From positions 26,522 through 90,521 of IMG/VR virus record IMGVR_UViG_2724679557_000005: 64,000 nucleotides of DNA; one strand, 5' to 3'. The notes under the pieces were generated by a model that ran no database searches, was not told where the DNA came from, and saw nothing but the letters and a program-made list of their open reading frames with translations. Positions 8,644 through 29,454 of this stretch are shown piece after piece; positions within the stretch are counted from its first letter, which is position 1, and every line of letters starts with the position of its first letter. Position numbers and translations under genes: made by a program. The DNA is from a virus (taxonomy: Duplodnaviria > Caudoviricetes).

Positions 8644-8686
8644 TGAGGAAATATATTTATAATACCTAGGAGGAGAATAGACTGAA

Positions 8687-10808: not shown

Positions 10809-10820
10809 AAACTTATGTTC
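10809..10820. promoter_or_regulatory. SOS box upstream of lexA
   Basis: AAACTTATGTTC, one mismatch to the Firmicute GAAC-N4-GTTC, about 55 bp upstream of the lexA start. Confidence 0.7.
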
Positions 10821-10910
10821 TGTATGTCTAAAATTAAAGTTTAAATTTTAGATTTCATTTGATTTAAATTTATTGTTTTGATATAATATAATGACGATTT
10901 CATAATAGAA

Positions 10911-11360: not shown

Positions 11361-11429
11361 AAATGTATATATATCCTTTTTTAACACAAACTATTATTGA
11401 AATAGTTGTGGAAAAGAGGTGTAACTTTT

Positions 11430-11921: not shown

Positions 11922-12103
11922 TTTTTTTCGGATGAAATAGCTTTTTATTATAAGTTATTTCATCTTTTTTATTTACTCATTTTAATTTACATAATGTTGA
12001 TTATGTATTAAAGTCAGTTCTAGTTTTTAAGGAATATGAATATATTGAGTTTTTTTTGGCAAACTAAATTAGAAATATTAATTAGAAATGAGGTGTAAGA
12101 TTT

Positions 12104-12634: not shown

Positions 12635-12747
12635 TAAATATTGATTACAGTATAAATATTATGTAAAGTAATTTATTGATAATAAAAAATCTCTATTATG
12701 AATGTTAAATTTATAATAGAGATTTTTTATAAATAGGAGAGTATACA

Positions 12748-13737: not shown

Positions 13738-13822
13738 TTATTTATCACCATCATTTACTATAATTTAAATCTATTCTTATAAGATTTAAATATATTATAC
13801 CAATAAATGAATTTTTAATCAA

Positions 13823-13854
13823 TTATTTCGGGAAATGTATATTTCCCGAAATAA
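13823..13854. other. Candidate dif site (difSL-like)
   Basis: Perfect 14-bp inverted repeat TTATTTCGGGAAAT-GTAT-ATTTCCCGAAATAA directly upstream of the xer gene, near where host gene orientation flips. Confidence 0.65.
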
Positions 13855-14257
13855 AATTAAACGATTTTTAGTGTAAATTTTGATTTTTTTCTAAATTTAA
13901 ACCTTGGTTTTAATTTCTCTCTTATTAATTTTAAATTATAATTTATATTTTTTATTTTTAACAACCTGTTTAACTTAAATTATTGCCGATAAACCAAATT
14001 CTAAACATTTAATTTGTTTACAAAATCCAACTTCTTTTAACCTCAAATGATAATTATTATTTACAAACAAACTCATTCCTCTAGTTGTAAAATTATTACT
14101 TTTTTCTAATTATAATTTTAATAAAAACGTAAATTTTACATATATTATAGTAATTAATTTGTATGAAAATTTAAATTTGAATTCCTGTTCAATCTAGCAT
14201 TTCTACTTTTTAATAATTTTCAAATTTAATTTTCAAAATAGATGTTGGATGAAAATT

Positions 14258-14311
14258 TGGACAAAAATTGTAGATAAATATATAATTAATATGTATTTAT
14301 CTACAATTTTT
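14258..14311 (+). promoter_or_regulatory. Probable ybaK promoter overlapped by an 18-bp inverted repeat
   Basis: TGGACA-17-TATAAT (14258-14286); arms AAAAATTGTAGATAAATA / TATTTATCTACAATTTTT. Confidence 0.45.
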
Positions 14312-14407
14312 CACATGAAATTAAAAAGTAGATGAATTTTAAAATCATTACACTTATCTATAGATTTTTTTCAATAATATTTTATTTATATAACAGGAGG
14401 AAAAATT

Positions 14408-14887
14408 ATGGCAAAAGAAAGTAAGACTAATGCTATGAGAATTTTAGACAGCAGCAAAATAGAATATACCACTTATAACTATCAAAATAAAGATGGAAAA
14501 ATAGATGGCGTAGCTGTTGCAAATAAAATAAATAAGAATGAAAATGAAGTTTTTAAAACTTTGATTACTCAGGGACACTCTAAAGAATTTTATGTATATG
14601 TTGTTCCAGTTGCACAAGAATTAGACATGAAAAAAGCTGCAAAAGCTGCATCTGAAAAAAGTATTGAAATGATTCACATTAAAGACATTAATAAAATAAC
14701 AGGATATATAAGAGGTGGATGCTCTCCTATCGGAATGAAGAAAACATTTAAAACTTTTTTTCATAACACTGCTTTGAATTGTGAAACAATAGTATTTAGT
14801 GGCGGTAAAATCGGATCTCAAATCGAAATGAACCCAAGGCAATTAGAAAATATACTAGATTGTATTTTTGTAGATATAATCAAATAG
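14408..14887 (+). CDS. ybaK: Cys-tRNA(Pro) deacylase
   Basis: KTNAMRILD, VFKTL, TGYIRGGCSPIGMK motifs. Confidence 0.92.
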   Translation: MAKESKTNAMRILDSSKIEYTTYNYQNKDGKIDGVAVANKINKNENEVFKTLITQGHSKEFYVYVVPVAQELDMKKAAKAASEKSIEMIHIKDINKITGYIRGGCSPIGMKKTFKTFFHNTALNCETIVFSGGKIGSQIEMNPRQLENILDCIFVDIIK

Positions 14888-14978
14888 ATTATATTAGTAG
14901 ATGATAAATAATTCAATTATATTTTGATAATTATCTATATTTAATGCTATTTATATTTATTTAGTGTAAACAAACTTA

Positions 14979-15038
14979 GAAGGTGCCATTTTTGCGTGTA
15001 TAGAACATATGTTCTGCACGCGAAAAAATGGCACTTTC
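14979..15038. repeat. 60-bp imperfect palindrome centred on a perfect SOS box
   Basis: GAAGGTGCCATTTTT-GCGTG...GAACATATGTTC...CACGC-AAAAATGGCACTTTC; lies between convergent ybaK and miaB. Confidence 0.7.
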
Positions 15039-15209
15039 ATAAAAATATTAATATCAAAATATATTTTTATATCTCTATATTTTAATCTCTTGTAGAAAAC
15101 CCCTACTAAGCATCAAATACTTTGTAGGGGTTTTTATTATATAGTCCAAATAATAAACTGTATTAAGATTATTATTTATTAATCCCAATACAGTTTGTCT
15201 AATAATACC

Positions 15210-16577
15210 CTACTGCTCTACAACTTCTCCTACTAAAGAAAATGATTTAGCTTCAATTATTTTAACTTTAACAAGTTTTCCTATCATTTCTTTACAACCA
15301 TCAAAGTTTACAAGCTTAGCATTTCTTGTTCTACCAGTTAATTTGTTTTCATTATTCTTACTAGTTCCCTCAACTAAAACTTCATATATTTTTCCTTCAG
15401 CAGCTTTATTTCCAACAACAATACCTTCATTAACAGCAGCTACAAGTCTATTAAATCTATCATGTTTAACATCATCTGGAATTTGATCTTCCATTTTATC
15501 TGCGGGTGTGTGATTTCTTCTTGAATATATGAAAGTAAATGCTGCATCATATCTAACTTCTTTTACTAAGTTAATTGTTTCCTCAAAATCTTCTTCAGTT
15601 TCACCTGGGAATCCAACTATTATATCTGTTGAGAATGTTACATCTGGGATTTCTTCTCTTATTTTTTTAGCTAATTCTAAATATTGTTCTTTATTATAAT
15701 GTCTATTCATTTTTTGCAATATTTCATTACTACCACTTTGTACAGGTAAATGTATTTGTTCACAAAGCTTATCGCAATCTCTTATAGCATAAACCACATC
15801 TAAAGTTAAATCTTTAGGATGAGATGTCATAAATCTTAATCTTTCAAGTCCATCTATTTCATTAATTCTTCTTAAAAGTTGTGCAAAAGTAATTTCTTCT
15901 TCAAGACCTTTACCATAAGAATTTACGTTTTGTCCAAGTAAAGTAATTTCTTTATATCCATTAGAAACCAATTCTTTTATTTCATTTTCTATATCTTCTG
16001 GTCTTCTACTTCTTTCTCTCCCTCTAACATAAGGAACTACACAATATGTACAAAAATTATTGCATCCATACATTATAGTAACAAAAGCTTTTACATTGCT
16101 TTTTCTGTCTATTGGAACACCTTCTACAATTTCAGTTTCTTTATCAAAAATCTCTTTAACTTGAACGCCTTCAACTTGAACTCTATGCAAATATTCTGGG
16201 AACTTGTATGCATTATGAGTTCCAAATATTATGTCAACGTAAGGGAATCTACTTAAAATTTCATCTGCCATCCCCTTTTGTTGCATCATACAACCACATA
16301 GAGCTATTATTAAATTAGGATTCTTCTCTTTTTGATTTTTTAATCTTCCAAGATTTCCAAAAACCTTATTTTCAGCATTTTCTCTTACACAACATGTATT
16401 GAAAATTACAATTGAAGCTTCATCTCTATTTTCTGTTTCTTCATAGCCTTGCGACTTAAGCATTCCTGAAAGCTTCTCAGAATCTTCTTCATTCATTTGA
16501 CAACCAAAGGTAGAAATAAAGAAGAATTCTTTTTTATCTATTTTATTTTCTTTTAAAGCGTCTATATCAAAATTCAT
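15210..16577 (-). CDS. miaB: tRNA-2-methylthio-N6-dimethylallyladenosine synthase; first ~25 codons are prophage-derived
   Basis: GCQMN, NTCCVRE, GCMMQ, radical-SAM CNNFCTYC, C-terminal TRAM domain; attachment junction lies at the Gly-Cys codons (16501-16505). Confidence 0.97.
16484..16528. other. Left prophage attachment junction (host miaB arm plus phage arm), core CAACC at 16501-16505
   Basis: Core repeated at 62335-62339; phage arm GTAGAAATAAAGAAGAATT (16510-16528) is the 18/19 inverted copy of 62309-62327. Confidence 0.88.
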
Positions 16578-16698: not shown

Positions 16699-18723
16699 TT
16701 ATTGCAATTGTTCCTTAAGATTGAGTATTTCATTTGTAATTTCATTAACCAACAATCTACCCTCTTCATCACTCATATCTTCAATTTCTTTATTTATTAT
16801 AGTTTTATTAAATTCTAATTTATTTAAAATATATTTATGATTTAGTTCAAAGTTTTTAAAAACATCATCCCATGTCATTGCATAAATTTCAAATTGCTTG
16901 CCACCTCTAACAAGAAATCTCTTTCCTTTATCTTTAAAAGTATCATATAAATCCATAATATCTTCATCAACTCTTTGACTTACCATTATAAATTTCCATT
17001 TTCTACGACTACTATTAAATCTACCTTCTTTAGATATTAATCTCATATAGTCTTCAATTTGTCTATATATTATTGAGTCAAGTACAACACTTGGGGCTTT
17101 TAACTCAACAATAATATTTTCTTCATCCTCTGTAGCATTTTCAGAATATATACTTCTTGATCTGCACATAAATATGTCTGGTCTTCTTAATCTTTGAGGA
17201 TTATCTATTAAATATTTTTCTTCACTTTTATATCCATCCAATATATATGTGTAATTTTCTAATGCTTTTTCAAAATTTTTATCAGCTGATACAATATTAT
17301 ATTGTTCTCCAAATAACCAATAATTTTCTTCTATAATTTTTTGTATATGATCTCTTTCATTTGTAAAATTAGTCATATCATGTACTAAAAACTTAAGTGC
17401 TTCTATAACTTTTAATCTATTTTGAATGAGAGAAACAGTTTTAATTATTCTAGATAATGTAGTTTTCCTTAGTACGTCATTCAATTGATTTCTTTCTTCT
17501 GTAGTTAAACTATTTATACTATCCATAATATTTATAATCCCCTCCCTTTCATCAGTATCCAATAACAAATTAAGAAATCCAACTATTGTTTTTTTGTGTT
17601 CAAAAGGGCCATTAAAAATTTTAGGCTGAATAACATAGATTTCAGTTAAAACTTCTTTTAGATCCTCTTTTTTCATTTCACCATATTTGCCAGTCTTAAA
17701 TTTAGGAAATACGCCTTCCTTCTCTAGTTGTTCTATTTTTTCTGGAGCTTTATCTTTGATATATAATTTTATTTGATCTTTTAATATATATATAAGTTTA
17801 TTGTTTAACTCCTTAAAAGTTTTATCCTTTTGTGTCTTTTCATTTAATAATCCAATTTGATTTTCTAATTTATCTGTAGTTGAATCATCTTCATAAAAAT
17901 CATCAAAATAGTTAGATTTTACATACATACTATGTGGAAACGCTAAACTCTTTTTATTAAAAGAAGTGAATTTTTTATATACTTGAGTATTTTCACTATT
18001 TCTAAAATAGAAATAGTACTTTTCTTTAATTTTTCCATTCCATTTAATAAAATTAACCTTAAAATCATAATTATCAATTGAAAGAGTTAACTCTTTACTA
18101 AGTGATTCATCTATAAACGTCATATAATCTAATGATTTACCATCAATCAATATTTCATACTTATTTTCTCTGTTTAAATATAAAAACCAAGCAAATTGAT
18201 CCTTTAAATATTGAATAAAATTATAATTACTTATATTTTCTTTTGTTAATGAATTTACTCCAGATAAAATTACCGTAGTCCCAATTTCATCTAAACAAAT
18301 ACATTTATCACTTACATCAAATTCAGTTGCATTTGATTTTAATATTTGTATGCTATATTTTTGATTATTATTACTATCATTATAAACAGTATTCCATAAT
18401 GCTATTTCAGCAAATGAAATAAATGAAAATCTTCCTTTTCCTTTTGATCCATGAATATTACTTTGTCTTTTTATTATTGACTTATTAGAATCTAAAACAC
18501 ATTTAAAAGTTTTGTCTAAATCTTCATAAATTATACCTTTACCATTATCTTTTATATATATGCTCTCAATTCCACCTAATTCATTTTCATTAAAAGTAAT
18601 TTCAATTTTATTTGCTCCTGCATCAAATCCATTCCATATATATTCACTTATACATTCATTAAAATCTTGACTTATACCAAGTTTATTTATACTTTTATTT
18701 GTCAATCCTGCTGTGTATTTCAT
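16699..18723 (-). CDS. GHKL (MORC/HATPase_c_3-like) ATPase fused to a C-terminal PD-(D/E)xK nuclease; candidate anti-phage protein
   Basis: ExIWNGFDA, DNGKG, GSKGKGRF, GTTV GHKL motifs; RPDIF...IIVELKAP...QIEDY nuclease motifs; start at 18723 follows a GGGGG RBS (ORF track starts at 18759). Confidence 0.8.
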   Translation of the reverse strand: MKYTAGLTNKSINKLGISQDFNECISEYIWNGFDAGANKIEITFNENELGGIESIYIKDNGKGIIYEDLDKTFKCVLDSNKSIIKRQSNIHGSKGKGRFSFISFAEIALWNTVYNDSNNNQKYSIQILKSNATEFDVSDKCICLDEIGTTVILSGVNSLTKENISNYNFIQYLKDQFAWFLYLNRENKYEILIDGKSLDYMTFIDESLSKELTLSIDNYDFKVNFIKWNGKIKEKYYFYFRNSENTQVYKKFTSFNKKSLAFPHSMYVKSNYFDDFYEDDSTTDKLENQIGLLNEKTQKDKTFKELNNKLIYILKDQIKLYIKDKAPEKIEQLEKEGVFPKFKTGKYGEMKKEDLKEVLTEIYVIQPKIFNGPFEHKKTIVGFLNLLLDTDEREGIINIMDSINSLTTEERNQLNDVLRKTTLSRIIKTVSLIQNRLKVIEALKFLVHDMTNFTNERDHIQKIIEENYWLFGEQYNIVSADKNFEKALENYTYILDGYKSEEKYLIDNPQRLRRPDIFMCRSRSIYSENATEDEENIIVELKAPSVVLDSIIYRQIEDYMRLISKEGRFNSSRRKWKFIMVSQRVDEDIMDLYDTFKDKGKRFLVRGGKQFEIYAMTWDDVFKNFELNHKYILNKLEFNKTIINKEIEDMSDEEGRLLVNEITNEILNLKEQLQ

Positions 18724-18748
18724 TAAGCTACCCCCATTTAATTGTCTA

Positions 18749-18847
18749 TTGTATTTCATTCATAAACCAATTATAATAGAGGTATATTAAATAGAAATAC
18801 ATTTATAGTGAAACCACATTTGCTTTGCACGGCTAGTGGTTTCTTTT
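18749..18847 (+). ncRNA. Putative antisense sRNA unit in the leader of the GHKL-nuclease gene
   Basis: TTGTAT-17-TATAAT (18749-18777) then hairpin GAAACCAC/GTGGTTTC plus TTTT about 65 nt downstream. Confidence 0.5.
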
Positions 18848-19126
18848 ATTTTATAATACTTATAGTAAATGGACAAGCTTTCCATAATTTAAAAGTAAAA
18901 ATGTCTCATATTATTATGTTTATTTTTCATTATGTAATCTTTACATAATGATGAAAAACCGTAGTAAGTATGTTTTTATTTCTCAATCTCTTTAACTTAA
19001 CCATTTTTTAAAATATGTAATATATTAGTCGTGGTATTCCAATAATAATTTTATTATTAAATTAATGTTATTTATAGTTATAAAAATAAGGAAGGTGTTA
19101 ACCTTCCCTAACAAAATTAGTATTTA

Positions 19127-19276
19127 TTAAAATTCAACCTCTTCAAATATTTTATATTCATTACTTTTAATATTCTTACAAACATATCCTGTCACATCAT
19201 CATAATTTATTATATAGCTTTCAATAATCCATTCTTGAAAATTATCATCAGTAATAATATCATTAATGCAAATCAT
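19127..19276 (-). CDS. Small hypothetical protein (49 aa) after the relaxase
   Basis: MICINDIITDDNFQEW...FEEVEF*; starts 1 nt after the relaxase stop and is followed by a GGAAGGT/ACCTTCC hairpin. Confidence 0.45.
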   Translation of the reverse strand: MICINDIITDDNFQEWIIESYIINYDDVTGYVCKNIKSNEYKIFEEVEF

Positions 19277-19277
19277 A

Positions 19278-20489
19278 TTATCGTTCTCTTTCATTATTAT
19301 TTGATTTTTCTTGAATATTATCTATAATCTTAAAAACTTCTTTATGCTCTATTCCAAATTTATCACATATATTATTTATAGTTTCTTTATATATATTTTT
19401 TTCTTTAGTTGTCTTTTCTAATGCATTATACAGCAATCTTTCGTTATATGAATCATCATACTTTTCTAATTGTTTATCTTGCATATTATAATAGCCTTCT
19501 AAATCATCTTCTAATTCTTCAATGTGTTTATCTTTAAGTGTATTTTCTTGTGTAATGGTAAATAACATTTTATCTTGATCATGTATTTTATTATTTAATA
19601 AATTATTTTCATTTTCTAATTTACTAATTTCTTTTATTAAATTAGAAATATAAACCTTGTTATTTCTATCTAATTTATTTATTTTCTCTACTAGATCCTT
19701 TGTATCTTCATTTTTTTCTATTTCCATCAATGTGTATTCCAAAGCTTTAACTCTCTTCTCTAATAAATAACTATGTTTAGCATATGCTAATACTTGCCTA
19801 TCATCTATTAGATCAAGTTTTTTCGTTATTAGAGAGTAATAAGTTTTTATATCCATATGCTTTGCCTTAGAACCTCTTACTCCCCTAATAAGATTATTAA
19901 ATCTTTTATTCATATGCTCTGAGTATTTATCTTGCCAGGTCCTCATTTTTTCAATTCCATCAAAATATTTGTTTGAAGATAATTCATATCTATTTTTTTC
20001 ATTATTATAAAACCTAGGTACTATTAAAGCATGTATATGAGGTGTAGTTTCATCCATGTGTAATGTTGCATATAGACAATTCTCACCAAAATGTTTATTT
20101 AAAAAGTTAATATTTTCATGTATCCATTCTTCTTTTTCTTGTTGTGGTAAACTATTGTAAAATCCATTTCCAGTAGTTAATACAAGGTCTGTTGCTATAT
20201 TAGCATTACTTCTTATCTTAATTCCATAAACATGATTTTTAACATTTTCAACTATATTGTTGTTGCCTATTAATACTCTATTTTTATCTTTTTGTCTTGG
20301 ATCTGCATTAATCACATCCATTTCTCTTTCCATATGCTTTTGGAAGGCTTCAACCTGACCTAAATCTTTTATCTTTTTACCTACTCTAAATACACAAAAA
20401 TATACATTAGCTCTAGCTCCAGTAATTTTCTTATTATATTTTTCTAATAAATTTTTATTATCTTCAATTGAATAATTCTTCTGATACAT
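19278..20489 (-). CDS. MobV/Pre-family relaxase
   Basis: KHMERE motif I, ADPRQKDKNRVL, ATLHMDETTPHIHALIVP motif III, coiled-coil C-terminus. Confidence 0.9.
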   Translation of the reverse strand: MYQKNYSIEDNKNLLEKYNKKITGARANVYFCVFRVGKKIKDLGQVEAFQKHMEREMDVINADPRQKDKNRVLIGNNNIVENVKNHVYGIKIRSNANIATDLVLTTGNGFYNSLPQQEKEEWIHENINFLNKHFGENCLYATLHMDETTPHIHALIVPRFYNNEKNRYELSSNKYFDGIEKMRTWQDKYSEHMNKRFNNLIRGVRGSKAKHMDIKTYYSLITKKLDLIDDRQVLAYAKHSYLLEKRVKALEYTLMEIEKNEDTKDLVEKINKLDRNNKVYISNLIKEISKLENENNLLNNKIHDQDKMLFTITQENTLKDKHIEELEDDLEGYYNMQDKQLEKYDDSYNERLLYNALEKTTKEKNIYKETINNICDKFGIEHKEVFKIIDNIQEKSNNNERER

Positions 20490-22023
20490 CTTTTACAACA
20501 TCATCTTTTATAATTTCTAGCTTTAGCTTCTCAATCTCACTATCAATATCTATTTTTTTAATATTATTATGGTTAACATTAGAAGTAGCTGAATATATAT
20601 TGCTTGTATATAGAGAGTTTGTATAATATCTATCCTGTATACTTAATATTGGTTGTTTATTACTTGTTATAATTAACACTTGGTTATCATCAAGACATCT
20701 TAACTCACTATTTTCAAATAGCTTGATTTTAGTTTTAGAATAACTGTGTGTAATATTTTGCTTATTAACATTTGTATTGCATATAGTTATTTCTTTATTT
20801 CCACAAAGATCACTTAAATAATTTGTAGTATCTGAATCAGATAATCCAGGAAGGATTATTTTAGTCTTAAGATTATTTAGAATTGCTTTCCCATTAGCTA
20901 CTCCATAGGTTTGAAATAGCTGAGTTATAGATTGTAAGCAAATATTCATGCTTATTTTACGACTTCTTATAGTTGCTACATTTACACTCATATTATTTAA
21001 CATACCTATATTACCAAATTCATCAAATAGCATAGTTATAGGAAGATTATTTTCTGTATAACTGTCAATTAGCTTGTTTAATGCTTGGCTGAAGAACGGT
21101 GCTATAAATGGTGCCAAATAAGGTGCTTTATTCTCAGGATAGCAAACATATAATATTGTAGGTTCTTCTCTAAATTTTTCTATATCAAATGTATTTTCAA
21201 CTCCAACTTGATTTATTCTGTTATCTATAAATAATTTCATATTACTTGCTAATGTTATTTTAATACTACCTTCTGTTCTATCAGCTCCAGTAACAGTTTT
21301 AAATATATTCCATTGGTTTATACAATCTATATTATTACTGCTATTAAATAAGGAATCTAATTGTTCTGTATCTAGATTAATAATTAACTTAAATGCAAAC
21401 TCTATATTATTAAATGGATATTCCAAATTCTTAGCATAAAGTAAAGCTGCTGCTAAAAGTGGTTCAGCCATCTGTATCCATTCTACTCCCCCTGTTTTCT
21501 TCCCTGTACTTAGTTCAATTGACAAAGCACCATTAAAAAGAAGAGTTGAAGCTAACTCCACAATTTCGCTATCATCTTTACAACTTGTTAATAGATTATA
21601 TTTTTCACTTGTTCCTGGTGATAGCGGAGAAAATTTCAGTACCTTTCTACCGCAAATCCTTTCCTGGTACTTTGAAGTCAATTTAAACAGTTCTTCTTTA
21701 GGATCTGTTACTATTATACTGCCTTTTATATTATTACTAAGTAAATTAGGAAAGAAAAAAGAACTTGTTTTACCACTTCCAGTAGGTGCTATAGTAACAC
21801 TACCTTCAAAGTCAAACTGTTCTTTTAACTGTATATCTTTACTCAATATTAATCCTGTGTTTCCTAAAATATTTTCTAGTTTATCTTTTGATTCAATATA
21901 TGCTGTTGCAAGTCTTCCTACCCTATTAGCTTTATTTCTAATAAAATAAGACAATATTTCTCCACTAGCAGCTATACCACCAGTAGCTATTGTAAAAATC
22001 TTAAGTTGTTCAATTATATCCAT
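20464..22023 (-). CDS. VirD4/TraG-family type IV coupling protein
   Basis: Walker A APTGSGKT, VTDPKEEL, Walker B LFDEFGN, LQSITQL..YG; overlaps the relaxase start. Confidence 0.9.
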   Translation of the reverse strand: MDIIEQLKIFTIATGGIAASGEILSYFIRNKANRVGRLATAYIESKDKLENILGNTGLILSKDIQLKEQFDFEGSVTIAPTGSGKTSSFFFPNLLSNNIKGSIIVTDPKEELFKLTSKYQERICGRKVLKFSPLSPGTSEKYNLLTSCKDDSEIVELASTLLFNGALSIELSTGKKTGGVEWIQMAEPLLAAALLYAKNLEYPFNNIEFAFKLIINLDTEQLDSLFNSSNNIDCINQWNIFKTVTGADRTEGSIKITLASNMKLFIDNRINQVGVENTFDIEKFREEPTILYVCYPENKAPYLAPFIAPFFSQALNKLIDSYTENNLPITMLFDEFGNIGMLNNMSVNVATIRSRKISMNICLQSITQLFQTYGVANGKAILNNLKTKIILPGLSDSDTTNYLSDLCGNKEITICNTNVNKQNITHSYSKTKIKLFENSELRCLDDNQVLIITSNKQPILSIQDRYYTNSLYTSNIYSATSNVNHNNIKKIDIDSEIEKLKLEIIKDDVVKDVSEELFN

Positions 22024-22035
22024 AAATACCCCCTA

Positions 22036-22107
22036 TTGATTTTAGAGCAACTTTAAGTTATACTAATATTGCTGTATAGGTAGTGGCTTAAAGTTGCTGC
22101 CTTTTTT
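22036..22107 (+). promoter_or_regulatory. Inverted repeat plus antisense promoter/terminator upstream of virD4-mob (oriT or antisense RNA candidate)
   Basis: TTGATT-17-TATACT; 12-bp IR AGCAACTTTAAG (22046) / CTTAAAGTTGCT (22087); hairpin AGGTAGTGGC/GTTGCTGCCT plus T run. Confidence 0.5.
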
Positions 22108-22133
22108 ATTTGATTAAAACTTCAATATCCACA

Positions 22134-22370
22134 CTACATATTCTCCCTATATTTTTTGTATTCTTGAATTATATTTCCCTTTTTAAAATCTTTTTTATCT
22201 TCTTTTTTATAATATAAATCAACTAATTTGTTATAAGTAGATATTAAAATGCTTGCAACCTTCCAACTTGAACTTTCTTTAATATTGAATTTATTACTAC
22301 ATTCATATTCTGCTTCCATAAAACATAAATCTATATCATCACTAATTCTGTCTAACATATGATCATCCAT
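22134..22370 (-). CDS. Hypothetical protein in rep-mob operon
   Basis: ORF track; tightly spaced in operon. Confidence 0.6.
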   Translation of the reverse strand: MDDHMLDRISDDIDLCFMEAEYECSNKFNIKESSSWKVASILISTYNKLVDLYYKKEDKKDFKKGNIIQEYKKYRENM

Positions 22371-22374
22371 ATTA

Positions 22375-22602
22375 TCAATTCCTTTCTAATTCTTTTTCCA
22401 TAGCCAGTTTCAATTTTTGAGTTTTTTGAGAAGCTATTTTTAGATAATGTTCTATTTCTTTGTATTCACCTTGAATATCATGACCAACTATCATAGATTT
22501 ACAATTTACAGACATATAATAAACAATATTTCTTATAATATCTATGTTATCTTCAACATCTTGTAATTTGTTACATTCTTCTTTTTCAACATACAATCTC
22601 AT
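22375..22602 (-). CDS. Hypothetical protein in rep-mob operon
   Basis: ORF track; GGAGG RBS. Confidence 0.65.
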   Translation of the reverse strand: MRLYVEKEECNKLQDVEDNIDIIRNIVYYMSVNCKSMIVGHDIQGEYKEIEHYLKIASQKTQKLKLAMEKELERN

Positions 22603-22627
22603 GTATTATCCCTCCTGACTTATTTAA

Positions 22628-23317
22628 TTAAATCAATGCTAACATTCCTTTTAAATCAAAAGTTGATTCTTCATCTATATATTCAAGATCATTTTCCCAG
22701 CCTAATAATTTATTTTCTAAAGAATCATAATCGTATGATCTTGGCTCAAAGTTATCAAATTTAAGTTTTTTAACAACCTCTTCTTTATTTGTTTTAGTCT
22801 TTGCATAATTACCCTTTAATGCTGCTATAGTATAAGAATATAAATTCTTAGCACCTTTAGATGTAGCATAATTAAATGCATTTAGAACTTTATCTATTTT
22901 CTCATTAGCAATTTTAAATAAACTCTTTGCTTGCTTTGCTGAAAAACCAAGACTTATAATTTCTTTTACTTCTTCAGTTACTTCTGAAAAATCCATTTGA
23001 CCATCTATATGTTTATTACCGTTTGAATCATTGTGTTTATTATCTAAGAATAAATATTTTAGTAATTTATAAGTATTTTTCTTACCAGCTTTAGTAATTG
23101 AGATATAACCTTTTTTAACTAAAGATTTTAATAATTTAGAAACTTTAGCTCTTCTTTTAGTTTTTAAATCAGACATGAGTATTTCATAGCTTGGATAAGC
23201 ATATCCTATAGATACATTATAATAATCAAAGATAAGCTCTAACATATAAGACTCTTCTAAAGATAGGTTTATATCTTTCTTTACTGCATTTCTAAATTTT
23301 AAATAATCTTTAGCCAT
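22628..23317 (-). CDS. Winged-HTH putative replication initiator
   Basis: N-terminal YAYPSYE..L...LKSLVKKGYI (HTH_36-like) and C-terminal KFDNFEPRSYDYDSLENKLLGW, typical of clostridial phage/plasmid Rep proteins. Confidence 0.65.
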   Translation of the reverse strand: MAKDYLKFRNAVKKDINLSLEESYMLELIFDYYNVSIGYAYPSYEILMSDLKTKRRAKVSKLLKSLVKKGYISITKAGKKNTYKLLKYLFLDNKHNDSNGNKHIDGQMDFSEVTEEVKEIISLGFSAKQAKSLFKIANEKIDKVLNAFNYATSKGAKNLYSYTIAALKGNYAKTKTNKEEVVKKLKFDNFEPRSYDYDSLENKLLGWENDLEYIDEESTFDLKGMLALI

Positions 23318-23344
23318 TTTTTAGTTTCACCTCTTCTTTTTTCA

Positions 23345-23402
23345 TTTTGCCGTATAAATAATTTTTCTGTATAAATTTATATTAAATCTTTTTGCCGTAT
23401 AA
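23345..23402. promoter_or_regulatory. Direct-repeat operator between divergent rep and RHH genes
   Basis: TTTTGCCGTATAA at 23345 and 23390, variant TTTTCTGTATAA at 23363, next to a minus-strand TTGACT -35. Confidence 0.55.
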
Positions 23403-23478
23403 GTCAACTACTTTTATTATACTTTTAATTTATTTTATGATATAATTAAATTATAAAATAATACATGGAGTTGAGATT

Positions 23479-23637
23479 GTGGAGAAAAAAGTATCTAAAA
23501 ATGAAAATAGAGAAAAACTAACTGTTCTTATAGATAAAGATATAAAGAAAGACATGAAAAAAGAAATTGTAGATCTTGATTGTTCTATGGGTGAATTTAT
23601 AGAGAGTTTATATGAATCTTATAAAAAGAAAAAATAG
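23479..23637 (+). CDS. CopG/ParG-like ribbon-helix-helix protein (52 aa), not in ORF track
   Basis: GGAG RBS, GTG start, MEKKVSKNENREKLTVLIDKDIKKDMKKEIVDLDCSMGEFIESLYESYKKKK; TGATATAAT upstream and terminator downstream. Confidence 0.65.
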   Translation: MEKKVSKNENREKLTVLIDKDIKKDMKKEIVDLDCSMGEFIESLYESYKKKK

Positions 23638-23741
23638 ATGTATTGGGGGTTAATCCAATACATCTATTTTTTTATTTTCTATAATAAATACAACTATTTA
23701 AAATAAAAAAACTAAGAGATAAAAATATAATCTCCTAGTTT

Positions 23742-24002
23742 TTATTTGATTGCTTTTAATTTCGCTATATCTTGCCAATTCTTAGCTGTTACAGCTTCAA
23801 CTGTATTTATATCACTCTTGATGCTAGTAATATCTTCTGCTGTTCTAGCTACTTGGTTATATGTTATATCAATTTTATTTTCGATTCTTCTTTGACCATC
23901 TTTTAATTCTTTAATATCTTGTGTATTTTCATCAATCTTTAATTCCAATGATCTAATACTGTGTTTTACTTCCCTTAATAGTTCTAAAATCTCATTTTCC
24001 AT
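23742..24002 (-). CDS. Coiled-coil hypothetical protein
   Basis: ORF track; GAGGTG RBS; heptad pattern. Confidence 0.7.
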   Translation of the reverse strand: MENEILELLREVKHSIRSLELKIDENTQDIKELKDGQRRIENKIDITYNQVARTAEDITSIKSDINTVEAVTAKNWQDIAKLKAIK

Positions 24003-24079
24003 AACAACACCTCTTTGTTATTATAGCATAAAACTATTTATTATACAGATCTCTATCAAATTATTTTTATATGCAGTGT

Positions 24080-24223
24080 TAATATATATAATTAATATAA
24101 TTTAATTAATATAAAACTAAGTAATATATGAAATTCCAAAAGTGAAACTCATATGGAATTCTAAAAACGAAACTTATTTAAGGTACACTTTTGGAACTTA
24201 TTTAGGTTTCTATTTTAGAACTA
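24080..24223. repeat. Iteron-like repeats next to an AT-only tract (candidate replication origin)
   Basis: Four 24-25 bp spaced units: TTCCAAAAGTGAAAC and TTCTAAAAACGAAAC, then inverted GTACACTTTTGGAA and GTTTCTATTTTAGAA. Confidence 0.55.
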
Positions 24224-24319
24224 AAAAACAGCAAGCATTTTACTTACTGTTATTTTTATTGTTGTTATGACATTACAACTAAAGTAAATGCCAGGAACAT
24301 CAATATTCTTGGCATTTGT

Positions 24320-24988
24320 TTATTTTAAATTAAATTGTGCTTTTAAATCCATACTATCGTTAGTAAAAGTAAAATTAGCATTTGATCCATCCTTACTAAT
24401 ATATGAATACAATTTAGCAGTAGAATCCATTATTTTAGTTTCTGATGTTAATTCTCCTTCTCCTAATATCCCTTTAACTTGATCATATGTCATTCCATTT
24501 TGTATTTGATTATATAAATCCATTGTAATATTTGCATTAGGTTTTTGTAAGAAAGCTTGAGCTTTTGCTGTAACAGCTCCATTTTGAATTGTTACGTTCA
24601 TATTTCCCATACCAGAACCTTTCCATTCATACAAAGTTGTTTTTATACCTGCTAATTCATTTGATGAACTTTCTTTACCTTCTCCAAGTAATGCAACTAC
24701 TTCTTCATATGATTGTCCCATTTGTATGTTTAGAAAGTTTTCATATGTTATTTTAGTATCTTCTTTCTTGGTTTCTACTTTATTTGAAGATGCTGCTTCT
24801 GTTGAACTATTATTATTACTATTAGCTCCAGAACCTGCTGCTCCAATTAAAACAATCACTACTATAAACCATACCCACCATTTCTTATAGAAAGGTTTCT
24901 TATTTTTTGCACCACAACCTGGGCAAGCTTTTGCACTTGAAGCTATATCAGCTCCACATGTTTTACATTTAATCATTTTTGACATCAT
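24320..24988 (-). CDS. Zinc-ribbon, single-TM membrane protein with two BLIP/DUF3862-like repeats (moron)
   Basis: CKTCG..CPGCG, KKWWVWFIVVIVLIG, duplicated IT....IQxGxxYxxV..LLGEG domain. Confidence 0.75.
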   Translation of the reverse strand: MMSKMIKCKTCGADIASSAKACPGCGAKNKKPFYKKWWVWFIVVIVLIGAAGSGANSNNNSSTEAASSNKVETKKEDTKITYENFLNIQMGQSYEEVVALLGEGKESSSNELAGIKTTLYEWKGSGMGNMNVTIQNGAVTAKAQAFLQKPNANITMDLYNQIQNGMTYDQVKGILGEGELTSETKIMDSTAKLYSYISKDGSNANFTFTNDSMDLKAQFNLK

Positions 24989-25162
24989 TATTTCCCCTTT
25001 TTCTAATTTATAGTATTATTGTACATTATTTGCACTTTATTGTAAAATAATCTAATAGTTGTAATAGTTGTTTTTGAGTAAAAAAATAAAACAGTAAGTA
25101 TTTTTTATAATTCCTTACCGTTTTATTGAAAATTGCAATTAATATCAATATATATAACAATT

Positions 25163-25924
25163 TTAGTTAATTAAAGTTGAAGCTTTAGATGCAGTTTTTA
25201 TTGTTGCATATTCTGAAAAGCTTTCACTTGATTTTAAATATTCATTTCCTTTTATTGAAATTGCTTTTACTATTCCAATAGTATCAATTTTTTCTTTGAC
25301 ATTAAATAGTACTAAAATTTTTGTTCCTTTTATCTTGCCATTTTGATATTCTTTCATGCCATTTTTAATTACTATTTTACTATTTCCACTTTCTAATTCA
25401 AATTTTCCACCTATATCATTCACAATATTGCTAACCATATACAATCCAAATCCAGAATTTTGCCAAACATCATCTCTAAGAGGATCCTTTTTCCAACTTT
25501 TTGTTATACCTGGTCTTACTGCAAATGCTAATGCAGTTTTATTGTCCTTTACAGAATACATAGGATTACTATTCAAACTTTTTTTAATACCTATTCCATT
25601 ATCAATGACTTCAAAACCAAAATCACCAAATTCATTAGAATACAAGGATAAGTTAAAATTTTCAGCTTCACTATGTTCAACTACATTTCTCATTATTTCT
25701 CTCATTAGATATGCACAAAAATTTCTATATTTAATATTAAAATTATAATTTTCTAATAGTACTTTAGCCATTTTTTCTATAGTTTCGCCTACATACTCCA
25801 TATTTTTATATGAGTCTTTTTTTAGATTTTCAACATGGAATTTAAAGTGGTTATCTAAATTTAAAACAATTTTACCTTTAATACCTTTAATACTTTTATT
25901 AATTGATTTATCTGAAATTACCAT
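25163..25924 (-). CDS. Histidine-kinase-like ATPase (HATPase_c) protein
   Basis: EIMRNVVEHS, VIDNGIGI, NSGFGLY, KGTKI boxes; no HisKA or TM region. Confidence 0.8.
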   Translation of the reverse strand: MVISDKSINKSIKGIKGKIVLNLDNHFKFHVENLKKDSYKNMEYVGETIEKMAKVLLENYNFNIKYRNFCAYLMREIMRNVVEHSEAENFNLSLYSNEFGDFGFEVIDNGIGIKKSLNSNPMYSVKDNKTALAFAVRPGITKSWKKDPLRDDVWQNSGFGLYMVSNIVNDIGGKFELESGNSKIVIKNGMKEYQNGKIKGTKILVLFNVKEKIDTIGIVKAISIKGNEYLKSSESFSEYATIKTASKASTLIN

Positions 25925-25964: not shown

Positions 25965-26939
25965 TTATAATATTCTGCTAATATCTATTTTATCCATCTT
26001 TTTATATTCTTTAGCTTCTTTAGTTCCCTTTATAGATAATTCTTTCATTATATCAGAAATTTTGCCCATTTTCTCTGAATTTAATCTTATTCTAATTGCT
26101 GTACCTTTAAATGATGTTTCATATTTTATAGTTTCCTTATCATTTATTAATAAACAATTATTCCCAGTACATATAGCAATATCCCCACCTGTTTCACAAA
26201 AATTGCTAATCATATATAATCCAAAACCACCATTATCGTACTGATCTTTTATAGTTTTTCCAATTCCACTCTTGCTAATTCCAGGTTGCATTGCTAATTT
26301 AATTGCATCTTCATCACTATTTATAGTTAGTTTTTTATTTCTTTTAAAACTTTCTTTCATTCCAATTCCTTCATCTAAAACAGCAACTTCTACAATGCCT
26401 TTGCTTGGCCAAAATTGTCCTGCATACCAAAAGCTTTCTGATTCACTATGTTCTAATACATTTCTAATTAATTCACTAGTACTATATTTTAAATATTTTT
26501 TTAAATTTGAATCATTTCTAGCTAATATGTTAGCTATGTCTTCTGAAGTTTTATCTATATATGTATATATGTCTTTATTATCTTTTCTAATGTCATTAAA
26601 ATTCAATTCTGTAAGAGGTATATATGTACTACTTCCCTGTGCTTCACCTGGGTTTTTTCCATAATCCTGATATACACTTTTAAAAAATCCCATATGAGCT
26701 ATATATCCAGTAACATTTTTTTGATTTTTAAAATTTTTATCTTTATGTTCACATTCTGGCGGTGTGTCATCTACAAATCTTCTTATTTTAGAAGACATCA
26801 ATAATAATCCAAAAGGTTCTGCTCTATTTATCTCCTCATAATCATAGATATAACTATCATCATTATGTATAGTATCCATAAAATTGCAAAAATTCAATGT
26901 ACTTTGTAAATCTAGTGTCTTAGGTATTTTAATTTTCAT
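25965..26939 (-). CDS. STAS-like plus HATPase_c protein
   Basis: N-terminal RAEPFGLL...YIAHMGFF; ELIRNVLEHS, VLDEGIGM, NGGFGLY, KGTAI boxes; paralogous to the neighbouring gene. Confidence 0.8.
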   Translation of the reverse strand: MKIKIPKTLDLQSTLNFCNFMDTIHNDDSYIYDYEEINRAEPFGLLLMSSKIRRFVDDTPPECEHKDKNFKNQKNVTGYIAHMGFFKSVYQDYGKNPGEAQGSSTYIPLTELNFNDIRKDNKDIYTYIDKTSEDIANILARNDSNLKKYLKYSTSELIRNVLEHSESESFWYAGQFWPSKGIVEVAVLDEGIGMKESFKRNKKLTINSDEDAIKLAMQPGISKSGIGKTIKDQYDNGGFGLYMISNFCETGGDIAICTGNNCLLINDKETIKYETSFKGTAIRIRLNSEKMGKISDIMKELSIKGTKEAKEYKKMDKIDISRIL

Positions 26940-27218: not shown

Positions 27219-29147
27219 TTATACATTTCCTAAATAATCTCCATCAATAAATAAATTAGATTCACTAATTCTTCTTCTATCTAATCCATCTGAATATTCT
27301 TTATTTGCTTTATTCCACATTCTAAAGTATTCTTTTATTTTTGATGAATCTCTTCCACGACTACAAATATAATTATATAATGTAGATCTAAACAATGATT
27401 GTATTCCACAGTTATACGCAAAACTTATTAATGCATCAAATTGGTTACTATTTAAAGATACACCTTTATTATCTAAGTCATTCTTTAATTTATTTGCACA
27501 ATTATTAGCTTCTTGTTTCAACCATTTTAATGCCTGTTCTTTTGTACAAGTAGATTCTAAACCATCTGGAAATGCTTCTGGAATCGAACAATAACAAGTA
27601 CCATGTCCTATTGTCCAATAATCTTTAATACTTTCACCATAATAAGGATCAGCATAAGCTTTTTCATAAAATCCTTCCCAAATTCCAATAAATCTAGCAC
27701 ATTTTTCGCTTACTAAGTTTTCTTCTATTAAGTGACCATTTTTATCAAAAGAATATTGCTTTGCATTAATTGTTGCAGCACAATCCATATAACATTTACC
27801 CATATGACCATTACTTTGTTCTTCTAGGTAATACCATGTTCCATTATCATTTAACCAACCAGTTTTCATTGCTCCACTTGGATCTAAATAAAACCATTCT
27901 TCATTAATTTTAATCCAACCTGTCTGCATTATACAATTTTCATTAAAGTAATAATATTTACCGTGTATAAATACCCACCCAGTATATGCATATCCATTAT
28001 CTATATCTAAATAGAACCATTCTCCCTTCTCATTTTGATACCATTCAGTTATCATTTTCCCATCTTGTGCAAACCTATACCATTTGTTATTCCAGTATAA
28101 CCAATCATTTTTTAACATTTTACAAGAACCTGATTGTAGAAAGTACCAATGTCCATTATCTTTAATCCAATCTCCATTAATAGTAAATGAATTTTTAAAA
28201 TAGTACCATTCATCTTTAATTTCTTTCCATCCGTTTTCTATTAAATGTTCACCATCTTCGGAATAGAGCCACTTATCAATTATTTTATCTTTATTCCAAC
28301 CTATTTTATATTTAGTTATAATAACTTTTTTAGGTATATCAGTAAATCCCCATACTTCATCAATCATTTTTGTGTCTTCTATATTTACATAGCAATAACC
28401 ATTCAAACACCAATATTTTCCCCAACTATTTTGTATTTTTAAATATAATTTATTATCTTTATATTTATAACCTACAATAACCATCGCATGACGACCACAT
28501 TTTTTACCTTCACTTGGATATTCTACAATTCCATCTGTACCTGGATGATTTACTTTATAAAAACTATCATATAATACCGTTGTTATAACTAAAGGTTTCT
28601 TTTCATTGTATAAATATATCGGAACATCTTCTAAATCAACTCTCACATATGATTGACATTTTAAACTTTTTGCTTTTTCTATTAATTCATTTTTGTTATT
28701 TAAAGAATCAAATAACTCACTTATCTTTGGATAATCCTCTAAATTAGGAAAATCTATTTTAGGAATTATTCCACTCTCACAAGCTAATTTCATAATTTCT
28801 CTTGTTACTGCACCTTTTCCTAATTGGCAACCATATTCATCTCTCATAGCATTTAAAAATCCTTCTGATAAATATTCATTTGTATTTTTTATTATTTCTA
28901 TAAGAGCTGTTACTGATTGAAATGCACAAGTAGAAGTATTAGCTTGATTTCTAGGTTCAAATTGATAATTTATTTCAAATTCATTCGGTAAATCCTTATC
29001 ATTATTGCTGCAAAAATCCTTGTAATTATAATCTCTCAAATCTATAGGACTTTCTATAACCCCATCTAAAGGTATTTCTTCATAATTTAATCTATTCACA
29101 AAATCTCTCCTTTTATAATCTCCATTTAAATCATAAAAAGGTAGCAT
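27219..29147 (-). CDS. Modular endolysin: papain-like C1 peptidase, cell-wall/choline-binding repeats, GH24 lysozyme
   Basis: NQANTSTC, HAMVIVGY, QNSWG; WYY/GW repeats; EGF..AYADP..WTIGHG, QFDALISFAYNCG, GLDRRR. Confidence 0.85.
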   Translation of the reverse strand: MLPFYDLNGDYKRRDFVNRLNYEEIPLDGVIESPIDLRDYNYKDFCSNNDKDLPNEFEINYQFEPRNQANTSTCAFQSVTALIEIIKNTNEYLSEGFLNAMRDEYGCQLGKGAVTREIMKLACESGIIPKIDFPNLEDYPKISELFDSLNNKNELIEKAKSLKCQSYVRVDLEDVPIYLYNEKKPLVITTVLYDSFYKVNHPGTDGIVEYPSEGKKCGRHAMVIVGYKYKDNKLYLKIQNSWGKYWCLNGYCYVNIEDTKMIDEVWGFTDIPKKVIITKYKIGWNKDKIIDKWLYSEDGEHLIENGWKEIKDEWYYFKNSFTINGDWIKDNGHWYFLQSGSCKMLKNDWLYWNNKWYRFAQDGKMITEWYQNEKGEWFYLDIDNGYAYTGWVFIHGKYYYFNENCIMQTGWIKINEEWFYLDPSGAMKTGWLNDNGTWYYLEEQSNGHMGKCYMDCAATINAKQYSFDKNGHLIEENLVSEKCARFIGIWEGFYEKAYADPYYGESIKDYWTIGHGTCYCSIPEAFPDGLESTCTKEQALKWLKQEANNCANKLKNDLDNKGVSLNSNQFDALISFAYNCGIQSLFRSTLYNYICSRGRDSSKIKEYFRMWNKANKEYSDGLDRRRISESNLFIDGDYLGNV

Positions 29148-29163
29148 TTATTGCTACCTAAAA

Positions 29164-29454
29164 CTATTCTTGCTTATTTAATTGTTTAGCCGTTTGGTTA
29201 ATACCAACAGCTACTCCCCAGCATAACACACCTTGTAATGTACCATTCACAATAACATCTAATGTAACTCTATATTCTGTGTTAATTATACTTAATAATA
29301 TTGCAAAAGTAATACCAAATAGCATTAATATACTTGTTATATATTTATCTTGTATACTCTCTAACTTTTTAAGAAATATTCCAACTACATATATGCCAGC
29401 AATAACTATAAATAAACTTTCAGGTATAAACTGTACTAAATTTGTATATTCCAT
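29164..29454 (-). CDS. Phage holin
   Basis: 96 aa with three hydrophobic segments and QGVLCWGVAVGINQ; directly upstream of the lysin. Confidence 0.85.
   Translation of the reverse strand: MEYTNLVQFIPESLFIVIAGIYVVGIFLKKLESIQDKYITSILMLFGITFAILLSIINTEYRVTLDVIVNGTLQGVLCWGVAVGINQTAKQLNKQE

Follow-up and report, generated by a model that had tools for sequence, protein, structure and literature searches.

Phages and conjugative elements are usually treated as separate vehicles of DNA transfer. In its passages on the subject, PMC12282955 states that conjugation is not known for any phage-plasmid or integrated prophage, and cites the mobilization of prophages only through integrative and conjugative elements (ICEs) of streptococci. 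Here we examine a stretch of 64,000 nucleotides from a tailed phage (Duplodnaviria; Caudoviricetes), hereafter the window, which makes up the final 64 kb of an IMG/VR 'provirus' record 90.5 kb long (IMGVR_UViG_2724679557_000005, positions 26,522 to 90,521); all coordinates below are those of the window. It contains a Clostridium prophage that carries genes for a relaxase and a type IV coupling protein (T4CP) together with a candidate origin of transfer (oriT). We propose, from these genes and motifs, that the phage can be mobilized by the type IV secretion system (T4SS) of a helper element, and we give this reading an even chance.

Parts of this arrangement are known from other systems. For streptococcal phage-ICE tandems and SMphage prophages, movement of prophage DNA by conjugation is reported or proposed in the relevant portions of PMC12282955 (citing Huang et al. 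2023) and PMC13651849. However, the relaxase, VirD4 and VirB4 of the streptococcal case belong to an adjacent ICE joined to the phage by site-specific accretion, as set out in the same portion of PMC13651849, whereas the window prophage itself encodes the relaxase and the T4CP, carries the candidate oriT, and has no pore genes. Integrative and mobilizable elements (IMEs) of Firmicutes with their own coupling protein are similar in another way. In the sections of PMC5704250 and PMC11389934 that describe them, they combine a relaxase, a T4CP and an oriT without a mating pore, integrate into a housekeeping gene by means of a serine recombinase, and may carry a maintenance gene of the replisome-organizer type. 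Unlike the window element, which has a full head, tail, packaging and lysis set, IMEs encode no virions, and the window integrase is a part of the phage, located at the far end from the mobilization genes. The 5 kb mobilization module alone has no integration module of its own; that of the whole 45.8 kb element is the phage serine recombinase. In its mode of action the element would resemble an IME, or else a mobilizable MOBV plasmid equipped with a coupling protein. Because it encodes a virion, however, the element is not an IME.

Phage-plasmids, in turn, share with the window phage a phage core combined with ParA/ParB/Rep-type genes, and the cassette described here is also found in circular phage-plasmids of C. 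botulinum that carry ParM. The window phage differs from them in being integrated in miaB, with both junctions present, and for that reason does not count as a phage-plasmid in this host. Among P1-like phage-plasmids, according to the pertinent part of PMC10879196, mob genes and oriT are present in only two and mark derivatives that have lost phage functions, whereas the gene set of the window phage looks complete. In the literature we found no description of prophages encoding their own relaxase and T4CP, and the supplementary tables of Pfeifer et al. 2021, in which phages were screened with CONJscan, may list such cases.

Relaxase and coupling protein of the prophage

The window has a low G+C content of about 0.23-0.32, and eight small to medium open reading frames (ORFs) span positions 19127-24002. 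Two of them, both on the minus strand and overlapping by 26 nt (20464-20489), encode a MobV relaxase and a VirD4/TraG-type T4CP. An initial annotation, made from the sequence alone and covering 19088-24223, had named this pair, and matches in Pfam, NCBIfam and the PDB confirm it. The relaxase (19278-20489; 403 aa, intact) matches the Pfam family Mob_Pre (PF01076; E = 5.9e-30, 105 bits against a cut-off of 25.5) and the NCBIfam MobV equivalog NF041497 (112.4 bits, cut-off 100). It also aligns with the solved relaxase domain of MobM (4lvi; E = 5.6e-12), with HMDETTPHIH placed on HLDESTPHMH. This stretch is the metal-binding motif HxDExxPHxH (H144-M-D-E-T-T-P-H-I-H153), which is invariant in six homologs, as is the HxxR motif H52-M-E-R55; the PDB alignment begins at residue 66. 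H52 is probably the equivalent of the catalytic histidine of MobM. The window protein has an extra coiled-coil insertion of 86 aa near its C-terminus, and the C-terminal part differs between strains.

The T4CP (20464-22023; 519 aa, intact) matches three Pfam models, T4SS-DNA_transf (E = 1.7e-59, 202.4 bits), TraG-D_C (1.7e-22, 80.1 bits) and TrwB_AAD_bind (6.6e-21, 75.1 bits). Its Walker A motif PTGSGKT (P80-T86) and Walker B motif LFDEF (D334-E335) are invariant in six homologs. Against the NCBIfam equivalog for CD1115 VirD4-like proteins it scores 193 bits, below the cut-off of 250, and by these scores it is a subfamily related to, but separate from, the CD1115 VirD4-like proteins. Neither the ORF list nor Pfam shows a recombinase or transposase ORF within 19088-24223, and repeat searches found no repeats flanking the module, in agreement with the initial annotation. 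The latter had read a relaxase and a coupling protein without a mating pore as the signature of a mobilizable element, and both the anatomy and the logic of that reading hold.

A candidate origin of transfer

In the mobilizable MOBV1 plasmid pMV158, MobM protects AAGtaTAGTGTG and makes its G/T cut within TGTG/TTATAC; the cut follows an inverted repeat by 8 nt and lies upstream of mobM on the coding strand, as given in the part of PMC5863519 that deals with this site. By comparing the non-coding DNA around all fetched T4CP-Mob pairs, we found a candidate oriT in the window at 18923-18975 (plus strand), outside the interval of the initial annotation. It consists of an inverted repeat at about 18927-18951, as located by folding (11-bp stem, z = -5.2 against shuffled sequences), followed at 18953-18970 by the 18-mer GAAAAACCGTAGTAAGTA. 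The 18-mer lies 157 nt beyond the 55-aa ORF that follows mob, and has one match in the window where 0.02 are expected.

The core of the candidate, AAACCGTAGTAAGT, resembles the pMV158 nick region and adjoins T4CP-MobV pairs in nine lineages. The 14-mer core of the 18-mer is present in 10 of the 121 fetched loci, and all ten are T4CP-Mob loci. Two further phage-plasmid records, genomes G282, G246 and G257, and the proviruses L113/L114 have forms that differ by one or two changes next to the pair (near-variants beside the pair are reported for L113-115); for G162 and G039 the motif is doubtful. When 11 loci are aligned, the core AAA.CGTA.T.AGT proves invariant and the flanks diverge. In the phage-plasmids, the motif lies between the T4CP gene and mob as a hairpin, AAACCGTA-GTAAGT-TACGGTTT, on the coding strand and directly upstream of mob, which is the position it has in pMV158.

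The resemblance to pMV158 includes a Mob_Pre/MobV relaxase with the HxDExxPHxH motif and a probably equivalent HxxR motif and, at the level of sequence, an inverted repeat followed about 10 nt later by a core of the form ...TAGT(A/G)AG/T... There are also differences. The window motif lies downstream of mob and on the opposite strand, and the identity of the window MobV with MobV proteins of streptococci, staphylococci and enterococci is only about 27-31%. The window mob gene is translationally coupled to a T4CP gene of its own, whereas pMV158 is not known to have one, and its carrier is a 45.8 kb prophage rather than a 5.5 kb plasmid. Because the candidate has the architecture of the pMV158 oriT and nearly its sequence, we predict a nick between G18968 and T18969 on the plus strand. 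Transfer would run rightwards from there, with mob and the T4CP gene entering first.

A single element integrated into miaB

Host genes flank the prophage. Those on the left encode LexA, a Xer-type recombinase, a YbaK-like protein and a MiaB-type methylthiotransferase; on the right there is a gene for a GNAT acetyltransferase. The miaB gene is 84% identical to that of a Clostridium metagenome-assembled genome and 66-78% identical to those of named Clostridium species; this similarity identifies the host as a Clostridium. The GNAT gene stands directly upstream of miaB in about 15 relatives from the genus, and therefore everything between the two in the window is an insertion. The intact miaB gene has a different, phage-borne N-terminus and upstream region (replacement 5' end at 16503-16577, minus strand), an arrangement also seen in genome G026. 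The displaced native 5' end, MIKFDDKQLNNVVEQDGDKHFFIETWG followed by a stop, is found at 62337-62417 (minus strand; 27 codons), beside the stop of the recombinase gene. The crossovers fall at about codons 24-26 of miaB, that is at about 16501-16506, where the core is approximately GGTTG, and at about 62335-62340. The element as a whole spans 16503-62336, or about 45.8 kb, with ends approximate to a few bases, and the two junctions indicate that it enters miaB at the 5' end and leaves the gene restored.

Direct-repeat searches for the attachment (att) sites gave chance-level families only; the sites were located by synteny and by the duplicated miaB 5' end. A search of the window found the two flanking copies of the miaB 5' end and no third copy inside the element. 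Since there are just two, this is one att-bounded element, with no tandem of a phage and an island. A tandem phage-plus-IME arrangement had been considered as a candidate and was rejected for want of that third copy. The only recombinase of the element is a large serine recombinase of the phage (60582-62285, plus strand), 67% identical to the G026 recombinase, which uses the same site.

The virion and lysis set comprises TerS, TerL (phrog_15, 1.4e-251), portal, protease, major head protein, sheath, tape measure, baseplate, fiber, holin and endolysin. The early region contains a repressor-like regulator and, at 53537-57238 (minus strand), genes for ParB-like (53537-54538), ParA-like (55394-56158) and replication-initiation (56387-57238; phrog_3584, 1.4e-70) proteins. 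CheckV estimates a completeness of 80 for the record. Judged by this content, the element is a temperate myovirus-type prophage whose gene set looks complete, and the initial annotation was right to place the module within the att sites of a complete prophage. As a separate observation, a ParB/ParA/replication-initiation region is of the phage-plasmid type, here in a chromosomal lysogen, and the phage may live in both states.

The coupling protein-relaxase pair in other Clostridium phages and plasmids

We scanned genomes of the genus (129 scored) and of the family (401 searched, 381 scored and 20 unscored) for the T4CP subfamily and found it in 3 of the 129 and 7 of the 381. In five of the seven family-level matches, phage tail or lysis genes lie upstream of the pair. 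Relatives on viral contigs were recovered by an alignment-based scan; single-protein scans yielded none for Mob among genome contigs, and none for the T4CP or for a 324-aa protein among viral contigs. By these comparisons, no fewer than five backbones of Clostridium prophages or phage-plasmids, whose structural genes show little or no similarity to one another, have the T4CP-Mob pair at the post-lysis end. On a conjugative plasmid, a T4CP-MobV pair was found once.

Genome G026 has the same module at the same miaB site, and its structural genes match those of the window weakly (local matches of 27-34%). The order there is miaB, the oriT motif, a 170-aa ORF, Mob (65% identical), T4CP (71%), a 114-aa ORF, the Rep-like gene (66%), a regulator, an iteron-like array, a DUF3862 fragment, a lysin-like gene and tail genes; another contig carries early genes, the recombinase mentioned above, a miaB remnant and GNAT. 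G061 has a different integration site and a distant recombinase, and its T4CP-Mob pair with the motif comes after holin, amidase and about 3 kb of small genes. Tape-measure, tail or fiber, or holin/endolysin genes lie upstream of the pair in G257, G247 and G282, and the IMG/VR proviruses L113-115 have it behind tape-measure and virion genes. In G246 it is on a 6.4 kb contig.

The closest pair of all is that of the C. botulinum plasmid pGA0702E1CS (NZ_KT901798), where the two genes overlap, the T4CP is 67.5% and Mob 49.7% identical, the motif lies 93 nt after mob, and the pair adjoins a replication gene. In other respects pGA0702E1CS is a conjugative plasmid of the pLS20 type, without phage genes, that encodes a CD1115-family VirD4 and a MobP2 relaxase of its own. 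With two coupling proteins and two relaxases, it (L002/L084) has the look of a conjugative plasmid into which the same cassette was taken up. Next in similarity come two C. botulinum 'plasmids' in PLSDB, each about 49 kb in size, which are true circular phage-plasmids of the Su0604 type. They encode terminase, portal-type, tail, baseplate, holin, lysin, ParM and DnaB proteins, with T4CP-Mob right after the lysis genes, and their family includes five IMG/VR records as well. Neither G061 nor the phage-plasmids have the Rep-like gene beside the pair, and therefore T4CP-Mob-oriT is the conserved core inside phages.

Matches in a public phage collection were distant only: six records for Mob at 26-38% identity (partial matches) and 24 for the T4CP at 27% or less. 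A T4CP match of 43% identity on a Priestia megaterium megaplasmid, with no Mob homolog or motif nearby, was rejected as uninformative. We also observed that the last approximately 190 bases of the IMG/VR record L091 (14077-14267) are G+C-rich, unlike the rest of the record, and are probably an assembly or trimming artefact.

Rep-like gene, iteron-like array and a possible plasmid origin of the module

Transcription of the module appears to run on the minus strand from the Rep-like gene through the T4CP gene to mob, an operon closed by a terminator-like hairpin at 19087-19110; further such hairpins bound transcription units at 23628-23673 (both strands) and 24251-24227 (minus strand). The Rep-like gene (22628-23317, minus strand) encodes a winged-helix protein of 229 aa. 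Only the helix-turn-helix (HTH) model HTH_36 is above its cut-off (27.2 bits against 25), DnaD_N is below, and in PHROG the protein matches phrog_270, 'replication initiation protein' (3e-11). Its family has 158 members at E<=1e-5 among 503 candidates. The members are mostly from Clostridium and named 'helix-turn-helix domain protein'; the nearest, 90-93% identical, are from records named Clostridium botulinum. In an AlphaFold model (AF2, 25 sequences, pLDDT 65.8), the protein has a winged helix at its N-terminus and a middle domain that is helical. A Foldseek search with this model gave no match at E<=0.001 (TubR and DnaD are the top weak rows), and the protein has no sequence match in the PDB.

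After an AT-rich array (24079-24128), Tandem Repeats Finder reports repeats at 24126-24174 (period 25, 2.0 copies, 83%) and 24171-24222 (period 24, 2.2 copies, 78%). The whole (24079-24222; z = -3.8), with four iteron-like units of about 24-25 nt, is a candidate replication origin or operator array. A similar array occupies the same relative place in G026, and that of the window is 97% identical in record L094. Taken together, the gene and the array look like a small replicon, and IMEs carry genes of the replisome-organizer type as well (PMC5704250, in its account of these genes).

The remaining parts of the module are small. A 55-aa ORF (19127-19294, minus strand) overlaps the end of mob, and ORFs of 78 aa (22134-22370) and 75 aa (22375-22602), both on the minus strand, lie between the T4CP gene and the Rep-like gene; none of the three belongs to a family in Pfam, NCBIfam or PHROG. 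The 78-aa ORF is dispensable, being skipped in contigs of sequencing runs X1 and X7, and the 75-aa ORF is 99% identical in L094. Just 5' of the T4CP start is a conserved hairpin (22048-22096, minus strand; z = -2.8) with arms AGCAACTTTAAG ... CTTAAAGTTGCT, which is kept in G026 and L094 while its loop diverges. On the other side of the Rep-like gene, in a divergent promoter region, inspection of the sequence reveals three operator-like copies of TTTT(G/T)C(C/T)GTATAA(A/G)T (23344-23405; Tandem Repeats Finder row 23344-23376). They are followed by a divergently transcribed ORF for a putative small regulator of 52 aa (23479-23637, plus strand) and by a gene for an 86-aa coiled-coil protein (23742-24002, minus strand; phrog_5553, 4.2e-13). 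At the position of the 52-aa ORF, L094 has two small HTH proteins instead, a 70-aa homolog of which is found at this place in G026.

The labels given to these parts by the initial annotation fared differently. Its two small ORFs (78 and 75 aa) are present and its iteron-like repeats are real. Its HTH Rep-like gene does encode an HTH protein; the Rep function is unproven, with DnaD_N below cut-off and phrog_270 at 3e-11, and we retain 'Rep-like' as a plausible label. A ribbon-helix-helix regulator could not be confirmed, since the 52-aa ORF has no family above cut-off and only a weak VapB-type match (E = 0.005).

Iteron-like repeats, Rep-like protein, regulator, T4CP, MobV and oriT candidate amount to every part of a small mobilizable replicon. 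This raises the possibility that the block is a plasmid-derived selfish cassette, that is, a small mobilizable plasmid which recombined into the cargo region of the phage and is now mainly a passenger in capsids, its conjugative activity serving the cassette itself or being incidental. Consistent with such an origin, the closest T4CP-Mob pair sits beside a replication gene on pGA0702E1CS, a conjugative plasmid already equipped with a T4CP and a MobP2 relaxase of its own; a separate replication initiator is encoded elsewhere in the phage; and the region around the block is a variable cargo zone. However, the module has no recombinase and flanking repeats were not found, and the block has kept one position in prophages although the protein identity between their copies is no more than 65-71%, with no Rep-like gene beside the pair in G061 and the phage-plasmids. 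Megablast of 19000-24300 against phage and plasmid collections, PLSDB included, gave no match, and thus no free small plasmid with the block. Whatever its origin, an oriT on the circle would mobilize the whole phage. We therefore regard a captured small plasmid, which the initial annotation had offered as its alternative, as a reasonable origin of the module and not as a recent passive passenger, and the selfish cassette as a whole as unlikely. The search for the module in related prophages and free plasmids that had been suggested there showed recurrence of the pair in at least five phage backbones and one conjugative plasmid and, by the same megablast, no free small plasmid. Mobilization of the phage by a helper T4SS remains our preferred reading.

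Variable cargo around a stable core

The module is located in a cargo zone that follows the lysis genes and contains several HATPase-type proteins. One, a HATPase_c_3 protein of 686 aa (16699-18759, minus strand; Pfam 9e-18, phrog_6203 6.8e-64), is variable cargo between the att site and the candidate oriT; two others (25163-25924 and 25965-26939) are paralogous members of phrog_3364. Between the latter and the module is a gene for a DUF3862/zinc-ribbon membrane-associated protein (24320-24988, minus strand), which accompanies the module in records L094 and L093 and in run X3. For sequencing runs the evidence consists of Logan contigs only, in which uncovered parts of the stretch carry no weight. 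In contigs of three runs the module adjoins the miaB end, and the gene for the 686-aa HATPase occurs in X1, is missing from X3, where a 31.6 kb contig joins 16667 to 18959, and is replaced in X7. It is also absent in G026. In X7 the C-terminal coiled coil of Mob is replaced as well.

Record L094 represents a mosaic relative, with tail genes 51-59% identical and an endolysin 96% identical to those of the window. It shares 22024-25130 at about 95% nucleotide identity, including DUF3862, the Rep-like gene, both small ORFs and the hairpin, whereas the regulator, the 86-aa ORF and the HATPase pair are each exchanged for other genes; the record stops exactly at the T4CP start. Judged from these alignments, oriT-Mob-T4CP is the stable core, joined in this lineage by the Rep-like unit, and the surrounding cargo turns over.

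A post-lysis cargo zone with variable HATPase-type genes is a setting typical for conflict genes, and the module might accordingly be a trait of lysogenic conversion, in which the relaxase and T4CP of the lysogen occupy or jam the pores of conjugative elements or compete for them. The relevant section of PMC11389934 describes that hitchers can lower the transfer of their helpers. Jamming, however, does not need a conserved cognate oriT beside mob, and PADLOC gave no match for the eight neighboring proteins tested, HATPase-type ones included. We consider such interference very unlikely as the role of the module, and return to mobilization by a helper.

Selection, helper systems and the case against mobilization

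The mob and T4CP genes are under purifying selection. Six pairs were compared by the Nei-Gojobori method, five within the phage-plasmid family and one between the window and G026, and the ratio of nonsynonymous to synonymous substitution rates (dN/dS) is 0.09-0.17 for both genes in all of them (12 of 12 comparisons).

Several observations weigh on the other side. The 90.5 kb record contains no VirB4 (AAA_10) match and no mating-pore gene; the initial annotation had likewise seen no mating-pair genes with the module. In a helper screen that is incomplete, being made on draft genomes, with G039 partly scored and with an AAA_10 model that misses the pGA0702E1CS ATPase (which matches P-loop_TraG), a VirB4-like AAA_10 domain is over the cut-off in one of eight carrier genomes (G246). 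The VirB4-like ATPase of pGA0702E1CS, used as a query, found nothing in the carriers G026 and G061 or in the non-carrier G001, and the phage-linked T4CP is the only T4CP in G026, G061 and G039. The N-terminal hydrophobic segment of the window T4CP is weak (residues 10-28, 19 residues, maximum mean hydropathy 1.25), and for this reason its membrane anchor is uncertain. The oriT motif is not found in G247 at up to one mismatch, and its position and orientation relative to mob vary between lineages. In a phage that is about 97% identical over 26980-51896, other cargo begins directly after the endolysin, and the record of this phage ends before the module could show; because of this divergence the module may be accessory. 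Finally, the T4CP gene of G162 (L127/L131, G162:C194), which has a primase-helicase gene nearby, contains two in-frame TAA stops and, because of them, appears to be a decaying copy.

The stops in G162 and the rarity of the cassette in the genus and family scans would also fit an inactive relic of past recombination with a plasmid, with erosion still to come. Such a relic is highly improbable in our view, given that the window frames are intact with all catalytic motifs kept, that dN/dS is low in every comparison, and that the non-coding core is conserved across 11 loci.

The scarcity of helpers in carrier genomes and the weak membrane anchor of the T4CP bear on a further explanation, in which there is no transfer between cells. 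Relaxases can prime the replication of some integrative elements, and here the relaxase and oriT would drive rolling-circle replication of the excised phage, with the T4CP-like ATPase pumping DNA in some other context, as part of a replication or maintenance device. The location of the module with a Rep-like gene and iterons agrees with this. Yet the T4CP has the full VirD4/TraG domain set, including the TraG-D_C domain for relaxosome recognition, its nearest homolog is on a conjugative plasmid, and the phage already has its own initiator and ParAB-like genes, all of which makes a device of this kind quite unlikely compared with mobilization through a helper.

Proposed route of mobilization

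The identities of the genes, their intact catalytic motifs, a single att-bounded element, the recurrence of the cassette with its motif, and purifying selection are established directly. From them we infer a nick site, the use of a helper's pore, transfer of the whole circle and a role for the Rep-like unit. In the proposed mechanism, the serine recombinase would first excise the phage circle. MobV would then nick the plus strand at the predicted site, G18968/T18969, and remain bound to the 5' end, and the phage T4CP would bring the resulting relaxosome to a type IV secretion pore, supplied by a co-resident or newly arrived conjugative element, and dock it there. The whole phage genome would enter the recipient as single-stranded DNA, mob and the T4CP gene first, to be recircularized and made double-stranded, possibly with the aid of the Rep-like/iteron unit. 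In the recipient the element would either integrate at miaB or enter the lytic cycle. Such a phage would have two routes of spread, by virions and by a conjugative mobilization that does not depend on the phage receptor.

Because there is a single att-derived pair of miaB 5' ends and none inside the element, an oriT anywhere on the excised circle would mobilize the whole phage. For the same reason, together with the integration into miaB, independent excision of the module is unlikely. Conjugative transfer of the whole circle, first suggested by the initial annotation, thus gains from the oriT candidate, the recurrence of the cassette, purifying selection and the lack of an internal att site, and is held back by the fact that helpers are rarely found in carriers. 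That annotation had also raised the dragging of terminus DNA from the integrated state, which is speculative; the predicted nick strand would direct transfer through the prophage and then toward the GNAT side, away from miaB.

Other features of the window

The record is much wider than the prophage, as positions 1-16500 and 62340-64000 are host genes (lexA, xer, ybaK-like and miaB among them). At about 12000-14000 the cumulative GC skew peaks and gene orientation flips, and a Xer-type tyrosine recombinase is encoded at 12748-13737. The replication terminus probably lies in this region, at a distance of about 3 kb from the prophage. Within the phage, the lysis cassette (27219-29454, minus strand) consists of the holin (29164-29454) and the endolysin (27219-29147). 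The latter has an unusual three-part build, in which a papain-like Peptidase_C1 region is combined with choline-binding repeats and a phage lysozyme domain. A family of 9-nt periodic repeats at 32170-32518, inside 32095-32691, looks like a collagen-like Gly-X-Y tract, and the adjacent ORF (31248-32081) matches tail-fiber PHROGs.

Implications for Clostridium phages

What is new here is the combination, in phages that look intact, of a relaxase, a coupling protein and a matching oriT, found as a cassette in several backbones and under purifying selection. The recurrence of this kit in several unrelated Clostridium phages suggests that they can also spread by hitching on conjugation. We propose, at slightly less than an even chance, that a set of temperate phages and phage-plasmids of Clostridium, although their structural genes have little or no similarity, each maintain at the genome end a relaxosome of their own (oriT, MobV relaxase and dedicated coupling protein) as dual-route elements, and that these are the first prophages known to have conjugative DNA-processing machinery of their own rather than to ride on an adjoining ICE. 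With a predicted nick site and few parts, the idea is directly testable.

If the proposal is true, the host range of such phages would no longer be set by the receptor alone, and cells without a phage receptor could be reached. Entry as single-stranded DNA could bypass defenses against injected double-stranded DNA. In the genus Clostridium, where phages and plasmids carry many accessory traits, phage cargo could pass between lineages that share only a conjugative partner.

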